This document shows positions 1,797 to 5,607 of a stretch of DNA of 64,000 nt, in pieces. The translations under genes and the position numbers were made by a program. The stretch is from a bacterium (GTDB lineage: Bacteria; UBA8248), in the NCBI GenBank assembly GCA_965203325.1, contig OZ241875.1, positions 2,368,001 to 2,432,000 of the forward strand. Reading direction: 5' to 3'. Under the pieces are notes generated by a model, which made no database searches, was not told the origin of the DNA, and saw only the letters and a list, made by a program, of their open reading frames with translations. Within the stretch, counting starts at the first letter, position 1. Each line of letters opens with the position of its first letter.

Positions 1797-1826
1797 GAAA
1801 AACCCCGGCCCTCGTGGACCGGGGTC
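1797..1826 (-). terminator. Rho-independent terminator of the minus-strand small transcript
   Basis: Minus strand GACCCCGGTCC-ACGA-GGGCCGGGGT followed by a T run. Confidence 0.75.
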
Positions 1827-1966
1827 TTTCATCGTTCGGTGACCTGGTGGGGATTCGCCTGGGCGAAGATAAACCCGTGGGAATCTCCCGAGGGCATCTC
1901 CCCTAGGCGCCGGTCACCTCGTCCCTACAGTGTATTTTCATATTAGGATCACCTCCTTTCTGACGT
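1797..1966 (-). ncRNA. Candidate structured small RNA / leader with a 12-codon sORF (MKIHCRDEVTGA, 1941-1903)
   Basis: Bounded by a promoter and a terminator. Contains AGAAAGGAGGTGATCC, an ATG..TAG sORF and nested stems (GGTGACC/GGTCACC, GGGGA/TCCCC, TTCGC/GCGAA). Confidence 0.55.
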
Positions 1967-1973
1967 ACCTGGA

Positions 1974-2002
1974 ATCATCGGGAAAGCGAGGCGAAAAGTC
2001 AA
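1974..2002 (-). promoter_or_regulatory. Sigma70-like promoter TTGACT-N17-GATGAT
   Basis: Minus strand -35 at 2002-1997 and -10 at 1979-1974, with a 17-nt spacer. Confidence 0.55.
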
Positions 2003-2101: not shown

Positions 2102-2194
2102 GGAGAGGTGTCCGAGAGGCCGAAGGAGTACGACTGGAAATCGTATAGGTGCCCACAAGGTGCCTCGAGGGTTCGAATCCCTCCCTCTCCGCCA
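2102..2194 (+). tRNA. tRNA-Ser (anticodon GGA)
   Basis: GGAGAGG/CCTCTCC acceptor stem, anticodon arm TACGA-CTGGAAA-TCGTA, long variable arm, GGTTCGAATCC T-arm, encoded 3' GCCA. Confidence 0.97.
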
Positions 2195-5084: not shown

Positions 5085-5247
5085 ATGAACGATACGGGGG
5101 AGATTCACGGTTTTGTAGGGACAGGCCTCCGTGCCTGTCCGACGTTCTGACAAAGGCAACCCCGTCGGGCGGGACAACCCCGAGGGGGGTTGTTGAAAAA
5201 GTTTCGATGAATGGGGGTTTGACGCGACTGGGGAAAGAGCAAGATAA

Positions 5248-5398
5248 ACTCCCCCCTTGAGGGGGAGTCGAAGAGGCCGAGCCCTTGGGCGAAGGCCGAT
5301 TCGGTGGGGGGACATGCCACAGAAGAAATCTCCCCCCACCAGCTCGCTTGCGGGCTTTCGCCCTTACCTCGCTGACTCCCCCTCAAGGGGGGAGTTGA
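5248..5398. repeat. Palindromic MITE/REP-like element, copy B
   Basis: Same terminal inverted repeats and inner GGGGGGACATGCCACAGA..TCCCCCCACC hairpin as copy A. Confidence 0.85.
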
Positions 5399-5607
5399 TT
5401 TGAAATTCTCCTCGGTGGGGAGCGTCTTCGTAGGGATCGTATAGCGGCTTTTTCAACGCCCCCCTCAAGGGGGGAGTGGTTGTCGGGTGCTCTCAAGAGG
5501 GGCGTGAAAACCCCAAGCCGCAGAGAGTGGTTATGGAGCAGGACTGATGAACTGACCGGCCAAAAGGTCGTCAACCGAAGCATATCATTCCAGAAAAGGA
5601 GACGCCC

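Follow-up and report, generated by a model that had tools for sequence, protein, structure and literature searches.

A small RNA gene related to Ms_IGR-5 combines a full-tail Shine-Dalgarno sequence, a micro-ORF and a covarying helix: a possible ribosome-engaging riboregulator

Ms_IGR-5 (Rfam RF02471) and CC2171 (RF01867) are two bacterial small RNA (sRNA) families that have been orphans in Rfam for years, each tied to one lineage. Ms_IGR-5 is an 'Actinobacteria sRNA' that was first found in Mycobacterium smegmatis between MSMEG_5794 and MSMEG_5795, where it is validated but uncharacterised and apparently NAD-capped (10.1101/2021.12.14.472595). Passages of other papers place it in overlap with ncMSMEG15794c (PMC10454040), report its detection by RNA sequencing (RNA-seq) in S. 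lividans (PMC8079986), list it among the transcription units of S. avermitilis (PMC8780764) and mention 'significant ribosomal reads' for its homologues in M. abscessus and M. smegmatis (PMC4974804). CC2171 is described as detected on Northern blots and without an assigned function (10.1101/2022.01.24.477521). A literature search, with the discovery papers and supplementary tables outside its reach, found no account of an open reading frame (ORF) in Ms_IGR-5 or CC2171, of a Shine-Dalgarno (SD) sequence matching the full 16S tail, or of a GAGGUG-N9-stop spacing. Here we analysed a stretch of 64,000 nt from a bacterium of the GTDB lineage UBA8248 (contig OZ241875.1 of assembly GCA_965203325.1, positions 2,368,001 to 2,432,000), which is called the window below, and in it an element at 1798-1966 on the minus strand. 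The element forms a separate small RNA gene, for which it has both a promoter and a terminator, and, judged by sequence and covariance-model scores, it is a divergent homologue of Ms_IGR-5. The reading that we favour, at a probability of roughly 0.45, is that it works as a translation-coupled, ribosome-engaging, mRNA-like riboregulator.

The assignment to the Ms_IGR-5 family was made from graded scores and from the order of the motifs. An Rfam scan of the window gave no match at gathering scores. RF02471 reached 19.9 bits on the element, below its cut-off of 45 bits, and in a scan of the whole genome this was the best match (E 0.036, model positions 1-184), the next one having 12.1 bits (E 4.1). 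In relatives from the same phylum, 10 of the 12 scanned scored 25.7-43.5 bits. Eight loci of other phyla were all above 45 bits, namely six actinomycete-type loci, among them Actinomadura and Streptosporangiaceae (69-106 bits), one of Acidobacteriota (55 bits) and one of Tectomicrobia (52 bits), and RF02471 copies were single in each of five other genomes checked. The motif order is shared with Ms_IGR-5 and reads 5' AC..GAAAGGAGGUG(G/A)UCC, UGUAGG, GAGGUGRCYG, the stop codon, a variable hairpin, GGCGAAU.CC, CAG.YCACC and the terminator, although the host is not an actinobacterium. The genome-best match, the graded scores of the relatives and the matching motif order together led to the assignment. 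The original prediction, made from the window alone, had noted that a match to an already described Rfam family would remove the novelty of the element. This applies in part: membership of a described but unexplained family reduces the novelty, and what appears to be new is the spread of the family over many phyla and its conserved ribosome-centred geometry.

Within the phylum the element is present in most genomes. By BLASTN, all of the window's genus (22 of 22 further genomes) and one sister genus have it, which gave 24 sequences with 91% identity. A covariance model built from these 24 sequences (R1) was searched against 51 genomes, the class searched being the whole phylum, and a full-length copy was found in 43 of them, one in each genome (family f1: 37 of 41; family f4: 5 of 7). 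The extra R1 matches were all weak (<31 bits); three were partial matches to the terminator only and two were nominally full-length. R1 also recovered the copies of Actinomadura, Acidimicrobiia and Acidobacteriota with E values of 1e-12 to 1e-3, these copies having been pre-selected by a motif pattern.

The pattern, AGGAGGTG-N14-30-TGTAG-N3-9-GAGGTGRCYG, was scanned in one genome per species and gave at least 119 loci, for which the chance expectation is, by a rough estimate, below 10. Eighty of the at least 119 loci were fetched, and 70 were accepted for having an SD pairing of at least 12 nt and an in-frame ORF with Glu-Val. By record title, the carriers are Actinomadura, Spirillospora, Streptosporangiaceae/Streptosporangiales and Acidimicrobiia (including the sponge-associated Spongiisociaceae), and further Terriglobia and Bryobacterales (Acidobacteriota), Binatia, 'Deltaproteobacteria', Zixibacteria, Eisenbacteria and Tectomicrobia; the copies near the window's come from records titled Nitrospinota or plain 'bacterium'. 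One metagenome-assembled genome (MAG) titled Kiloniellales (Alphaproteobacteria; L137 / G059) holds an Acidimicrobiia-type copy, MSESSCRTLEVAER, with 50 bits for RF02471 and no CC2171 match, and its title or binning may be wrong. Around five high-GC loci of other phyla, crude ORF calls were mostly without a Pfam match and no tRNA was found nearby.

The first conserved feature is the extended SD, which begins some 5 nt into the RNA, counted from its inferred 5' end. The host 16S gene has the 3' end ...GGATCACCTCCTTTCT / ...CTGGATCACCTCCTTTCTAAGG, to which the 16-mer of the element is perfectly complementary, so that it matches the 16S tail of its own host. The original prediction had reached the same pairing with the canonical 3' end only, and it is exact against the host's own. 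When one mismatch was allowed, the SD 15-mer occurred at 2 places in the 4.39-Mb genome, the element and the 16S gene itself. The predicted duplex of the SD with the 16S tail has -28.4 kcal/mol, compared with -8.7 kcal/mol for GGAGG alone, and the predicted pairing of the internal GAGGUG to the same tail has -14.9 kcal/mol. In the accepted pattern matches, the pairing to the 16S tail (Watson-Crick plus GU) covered 14-16 nt in 70 of 70 copies and the full 16 nt in 43.

A micro-ORF of 12 codons follows, and its ATG sits 10 nt after GGAGG in the host. All 28 phylum copies that keep the SD have an intact ORF, and in one more copy a contig end truncates it. The ORF of family f1 has 12 codons (MKxxC[RSI]xEV[TA]xx) and that of family f4 has 14 (e.g. 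MKKSSCSDREVAEV), the two differing by whole codons (two one-codon length differences). The phylum ORFs start with ATG or TTG, stop with TAG or TGA and show synonymous changes among each other (ATA/ATT, AGG/AGA, GAC/GAT, AAG AAA / AAA AAG). Of the 81 distinct copies, which are those with the extended SD, 76 have an in-frame start codon 4-13 nt past GGAGG, compared with 5 and 4 for the two remaining frames. In 78 of the 81 the first in-frame stop follows GAGGTG at a distance of exactly 9 nt. Among the 70 accepted copies the starts are ATG (54), TTG (13) and GTG (3), the stop is at +9 from GAGGTG in 70 of 70 (TAG 57, TGA 8, TAA 5), and the spacer between TGTAG and GAGGTG has either 4 or 7 nt. A second ORF, beginning at an ATG 6 nt past the stop, was rejected because this ATG is AAG in two close relatives.

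The peptide itself is much more variable. The 70 accepted copies encode 50 distinct peptides, and only Cys and Glu-Val are common to all of them. These residues coincide with the invariant nucleotide motifs. The Cys codon is TGT and never TGC in 29 phylum copies (TGTAG in 26, TGTAT in 3), and GAG GTG shows no change at all in these 29, silent sites included. The last three residues track helix P1, and no conservation of the peptide was found beyond that imposed by the invariant nucleotide motifs and this helix. Since the peptides vary while start, frame and stop are regular, these results indicate that the act and the geometry of translation are conserved rather than the peptide, and that the peptide is probably a by-product and not an effector.

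The third feature is the structure into which the end of the ORF is folded. The fold of the 176-nt RNA has a minimum free energy (MFE) of -78.1 kcal/mol with a z score of -4.77, and 0 of 200 shuffles were equally stable. A long hairpin is closed by helix P1, GGTGACCGG/CCaGGTCACC, the 5' strand of which overlaps the internal GAGGUG, and the next helix, P2 (CGCCU/AGGCG), holds the stop codon. Where the 3' strand of P2 gives way to that of P1, an unpaired AAUCCCCA is conserved, and other phyla also have a stretch like AAU(N)CC at the position of this bulge. In a MAFFT alignment made independently from 43 copies of several phyla, P1 was 91.5% paired, compared with at most 49.2% when the partners were slid, and 3 of its 9 pairs changed on both sides, in 43 cells (examples are CGG/CCaG, UGUC/GGCA, CGAG/CUCG, UGAG/CUCA and CGCG/CGCG). 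The register of P2, examined by eye, shifts by one base between lineages. The original prediction had pointed to homologues as a check of stem against ORF, and in these copies both hold: P1 covaries, and the start, frame and stop of the ORF are conserved across phyla.

Inside the closing helix the original prediction had placed a multibranch fold with GGGGA/TCCCC. The closing pairing GGTGACC/GGTCACC is retained as P1, but the inner fold is better read, from the pattern of base changes, as an unbranched rod consisting of CGCCT/AGGCG, GG/CC, GGAGAT/ATCTTC, GCCC/GGGT and GGGA/TCCC. Within the genus the rod has 6 compensatory pairs and the multibranch fold 3, and rod pair 63/117 changes from GC to AU in 2 genus members. 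The multibranch interior is compatible with the genus, yet GGGGA/TCCCC and TTCGC/GCGAA never vary informatively there, and in the sister genus the GGGGA/TCCCC pairing is disrupted. In the 29 full-length phylum copies the rod and terminator were 90.8% paired, compared with at most 56.8% when the partners were slid, and 26 of 43 pairs changed on both sides, the alignment being fitted to the covariance model and hence biased towards that structure. Two further helices were considered near the SD. The SD-sequestering helix of the Rfam model, GGUGGU/GCUGCC, suits Actinomadura-type copies by eye, but it fits neither the main genus of this phylum nor Acidimicrobiia and was rejected. A candidate helix P0, between the 3' extension of the SD (GRUCC) and the bases past UGUA (GGAYC), fits many lineages and clearly misfits others; its compensatory changes are few (GAUCA/UGAUC versus GAUCG/CGAUC, and GAUCC/GGAUC).

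The RNA is framed by a promoter and a terminator, both as originally predicted. TTGACT-N17-GATGAT was the only sigma-70-like site listed by the promoter scanner in 1200-2600, where shuffles gave 0.4 on average. Upstream sequence was available for 28 phylum relatives, and 27 of them have TTGAC at 45-47 nt ahead of GGAGGTG (the remaining one has TTGGC); the -10 position reads GATGAT, GATAAT, CATAAT, CATCAT, TAATGT or TAAGTA. The fixed distance of TTGAC indicates that the promoter is conserved together with the RNA. From this geometry we infer a transcription start at 1966, and the corresponding A (A3) is invariant in the alignment of the 24 sequences. The terminator folds as a GC-rich hairpin of 16 bp followed by U5, and in the phylum 10 of 14 of its pairs show changes in both partners. 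A simple terminator scanner missed it on the minus strand and listed the same palindrome on the plus strand only. The positions of all features are collected in Table 1.

Table 1. Features of the element and its surroundings, in window coordinates as used throughout; the element is read on the minus strand
Feature	Position	Strand	Basis or remark
-35 hexamer TTGACT	1997..2002	-	promoter scan
-10 hexamer GATGAT, 17-nt spacer from -35	1974..1979	-	promoter scan
Inferred transcription start, A of conserved ACG, 8 nt past -10	1966	-	promoter geometry and invariant A3
Extended Shine-Dalgarno sequence AGAAAGGAGGTGATCC	1946..1961	-	16-nt perfect complement of own 16S 3' tail
Micro-ORF MKIHCRDEVTGA*, 12 codons	1903..1941	-	ATG 1941-1939, TAG 1905-1903
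UGUAG motif (Cys codon UGU + AG)	1925..1929	-	conserved in phylum copies
Internal SD-like GAGGUG	1915..1920	-	9 nt ahead of stop codon
P1 5' strand GGTGACCGG (last ORF codons)	1910..1918	-	fold and covariation
P1 3' strand CCAGGTCACC, anti-SD-like	1838..1847	-	covariation, independent MAFFT alignment
Rod interior: P2 and variable apical hairpin	1856..1909	-	fold and compensatory changes
P2: CGCCT with AGGCG	1909-1905 with 1860-1856	-	spans stop codon
Conserved unpaired bulge AATCCCCA, between P2 and P1	1848..1855	-	rod model
Intrinsic terminator: GC-rich stem, ACGA loop, U-run	1798..1829	-	fold
tRNA-Ser(GGA), divergent from element	2102..2191	+	

RNA libraries gave a hint that the element is expressed. 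Contigs of close relatives covering it were found in three studies (sponge and marine metatranscriptomes), with spans of 1778-1954 (184 nt), 1782-1947 (186 nt) and 1660-1954 (298 nt, running into ytoQ). Two of the contigs begin at 1954 and one at 1947. No contig of the four RNA runs reaches into 1959-2090, a gap to which no weight is given for the 5' end.

These features can be joined into one mechanism, in which we infer the binding of the 30S subunit, translation in the host, the switch and the action of the freed segment. By pairing over 14-16 bp with the entire single-stranded 16S tail, the 5'-proximal SD would capture a 30S subunit, and the ribosome would then translate the micro-ORF. The last five codons and the stop are locked in P1 and P2 in the predicted fold, and because of this, translation would have to unzip the base of the rod. 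Termination would occur 9 nt past GAGGUG, a spacing at which the anti-SD can hold a ribosome. The unzipping may release a conserved 3' segment made up of GGCG, the bulge AAUCCCCA and CCAGGUCACC, the strand that resembles the anti-SD. This segment could either re-pair with the 5' SD or act elsewhere. The predicted re-pairing of the 3' strand with the 5' SD has -11.2 kcal/mol, compared with -13.3 kcal/mol for P1.

Several points weigh against this mechanism or against the data behind it. The RF02471 score of the element itself is below the cut-off. The scan pattern was derived from the element, so that TGTAG, GAGGTGRCYG and AGGAGGTG are present in the copies by construction; the SD pairing beyond AGGAGGTG, the starts, the spacer values and the stop position were not forced by it. 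Three Acidimicrobiaceae copies have no in-frame ATG, GTG or TTG start, and two Planctomycetota copies read GAGGTG in another frame, their 12-codon ORF still ending about 10 nt after GAGGTG. An SD duplex of 16 bp could retard the escape of the ribosome instead of favouring translation. The predicted switch pairing follows almost automatically from the likeness of the two SD-like strands. Lastly, the RNA contigs are assembled at a depth of 2.7-5.8 from libraries that may hold DNA, they do not show ends, strand or level, and a fourth RNA run had no contig on the element.

The three Acidimicrobiaceae copies (MAG loci L093, L145 and L146) keep the 16-nt SD, UGUAGG and GAGGUG, with a spacer of 8 nt. 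They have CTG where relatives have TTG, and a 14-codon frame from this CTG ends in ..LEVAGR* with UGUAGG in a shifted frame. Judged from these three copies, a rare CTG start with compensating frameshifts may be used.

The alternative explanations differ in which part of the RNA would be functional. In the first, the element is a micropeptide gene, in which the 12-residue peptide (M-x3-C-[RS]-x-E-V-[TA]-x-x) is the product, the SD serves only to drive high expression, and the rod and terminator stabilise the mRNA. The conserved start, frame and stop, the use of three kinds of stop codon and the synonymous changes agree with a coding function, and so do the Cys and Glu-Val of all 70 accepted copies, although Glu-Val belonged to the acceptance filter. 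Against the peptide, its conserved residues sit on nucleotides that are invariant even at synonymous sites, with TGT never replaced by TGC in high-GC genomes, and its three C-terminal codons covary with the 3' strand of P1. The N-terminal residues and their number vary freely, which gives the 50 distinct peptides; UGUAGG is out of frame in the three Acidimicrobiaceae copies and GAGGUG in the two Planctomycetota copies; and conserved unpaired sequence lies in the 3' untranslated half. Of the small-peptide gene suggested originally, a translated ORF is thus strongly supported by start, frame and stop, whereas a peptide sequence conserved beyond the RNA motifs is not, and we regard a functional micropeptide as unlikely, at about one chance in five.

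A second alternative is a 30S decoy. In this case the RNA would titrate or park small subunits on its complement of the anti-SD tail, as a counterpart of 6S RNA or as a hibernation aid, and translation of the micro-ORF would serve as the release. Complementarity to the full tail is conserved in two separate Rfam families, the predicted duplex is strong (-28.4 kcal/mol), and the element is the sole such site in the genome besides the 16S gene. Ribosome footprints on Ms_IGR-5 homologues, as mentioned in passages of one study (PMC4974804), also agree with it. Titration, on the other hand, needs an abundance near that of ribosomes, and the depth of the contigs is low; in the accessible passages on M. 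smegmatis, Ms1 and IGR-2 are singled out for abundance and not Ms_IGR-5 (10.1101/2021.12.14.472595). The 30S-binding RNA of the original prediction fits the full-tail pairing in 70 of 70 relatives and in 12 of 12 CC2171 copies, with binding as such read from the complementarity, but a decoy as its purpose seems to us rather improbable.

A third alternative is a base-pairing sRNA, for which the STAB-SD elements of Bacillus offer a model. STAB-SDs are 5' mRNA stabilisers, in which a strong SD-like element near the 5' end binds the 16S tail with no start codon at initiation spacing. Here, the 5' SD would be a ribosome-bound stabiliser of this kind, the ORF would be incidental, and the bulge and the C-rich 3' strand would be the seed for targets. 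The SD close to the 5' end, which could shield the RNA, and the conserved unpaired AAUCC-like bulge with the CACC strand agree with it. Unlike in a STAB-SD, an in-frame start follows the SD (in 76 of 81 copies, and as the ATG 10 nt past GGAGG in the host), and an incidental ORF would not show such regularity of start, frame and stop position, which makes this explanation improbable.

The translation-coupled reading was also compared with leader-peptide switches, in which translation of a tiny ORF remodels an RNA, and with prfB, in which an SD-like element a few bases ahead of a stop acts on the ribosome. The element resembles them in having a tiny ORF in an RNA structure and an SD-like element shortly before the stop. 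It differs from them in lacking a conserved downstream gene, a terminator/antiterminator alternative, a slippery site and a second frame.

The gene neighbourhood bears on a fourth explanation, by which the element would act in cis, as leader or attenuator, on the YtoQ-family gene that follows it. This gene (PF11071, E 9.8e-66) is on the same strand and begins about 70 nt past the terminator, and one RNA contig of a relative (1660-1954) spans the element into it. Among 16 loci, YtoQ was found downstream solely within the window's genus (3 of 4 loci checked). The downstream ORF of the other 12 is URO-D, amidase, LexA, cupin-HTH, glyoxalase, amino-acid kinase or without a Pfam match, and in 4 of the 16 the neighbour is on the opposite strand. 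The terminator is a perfect 16-bp stem with no evident antiterminator. As YtoQ was found downstream only within the genus and the neighbours vary, the element is a gene of its own and not a ytoQ leader, and the proposed attenuator is very improbable. The other proposal, a GGA-motif CsrA sponge, can be dropped, as a PF02599 search found no CsrA in the 95.5%-complete genome and was positive in the controls E. coli, B. subtilis and T. maritima.

Other neighbours differ between families. In family f1 the element always lies divergent beside a tRNA gene, tRNA-Ser(GGA) at 6 loci, including the one originally noted in the window, and tRNA-Cys(GCA) at 3 (the window, L053, L054, L055, L056, L058, L061, L064 and L065), while no tRNA was found near three scanned f4 loci. 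In f4, 3 of 4 loci (L069, L071, L072) have a LexA gene (LexA_DNA_bind + Peptidase_S24) on the same strand, about 130 nt past the element, and an SLT/LysM gene lies upstream in all three loci with upstream sequence. A gene for the bacterial small signal recognition particle (SRP) RNA was found about 0.2-1.5 kb from the element in two genera (L065, 1260-1358; L053, 3085-3162), and in L065 it also adjoins an ORF for DNA polymerase III gamma/tau (dnaX-type). Elsewhere in the window, at about 950-1050 and 5100-5480 (e.g. 5377-5474), there is a long near-perfect inverted repeat, TCCCCCTCAAGGGGGG ... CCCCCCTCAAGGGGGG, which gave a miRNA match at chance level. Spurious ORFs in several intergenic stretches translate to the same strings of the PLKGGV / SPLEG type, which suggests a dispersed palindromic repeat element.

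CC2171 is the other described family with which the element was compared. RF01867 scored 22.2 bits on the element, short of its 75-bit cut-off. Twelve alphaproteobacterial RF01867 matches were examined, three of them above the cut-off. Like the element, CC2171 is a stand-alone sRNA; it begins with 5' GAAAGGAGGUGAUCC, pairs with 15-16 nt of the 16S tail in 12 of 12 copies, and has a start codon after the SD that opens a short ORF, followed by a closing helix and then a terminator. In contrast to the element, where the start is 10 nt past GGAGG and the ORF has 12 codons, CC2171 has its start 7 nt past GGAGG and an ORF of 22-32 codons beginning MS(H/S/N/T), and TGTAG...GAGGTG occurs in 0 of 12 copies. 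In most of these copies (L196, L198-L208) a CAACAAC box stands right before the SD, and several of the ORFs begin MSHCH. CC2171 may be a parallel or a very distant version of the same design. A wider proposal is that Ms_IGR-5, the Nitrospinota-like version and CC2171 are one widespread design, in which a single RNA per genome mimics a perfect initiation site, pairs with the full 16S tail, captures free 30S subunits and is reset by translation of a micro-ORF that ends one SD-spacing past an internal SD. We regard this as a long shot.

Ms_IGR-5-like genes thus extend well past the Actinobacteria, and their conserved core is a ribosome-engaging module that consists of a full-tail SD, a micro-ORF, an internal SD 9 nt before the stop and a covarying helix. 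Through this geometry two orphan sRNA families become directly accessible to experiment, and an 'unknown sRNA' is turned into a concrete hypothesis. It also raises the general question of whether one dedicated bacterial RNA reads out the availability of the anti-SD. If the shared design is true, such an RNA would be a translational counterpart of 6S RNA, sensing or buffering free ribosome capacity.

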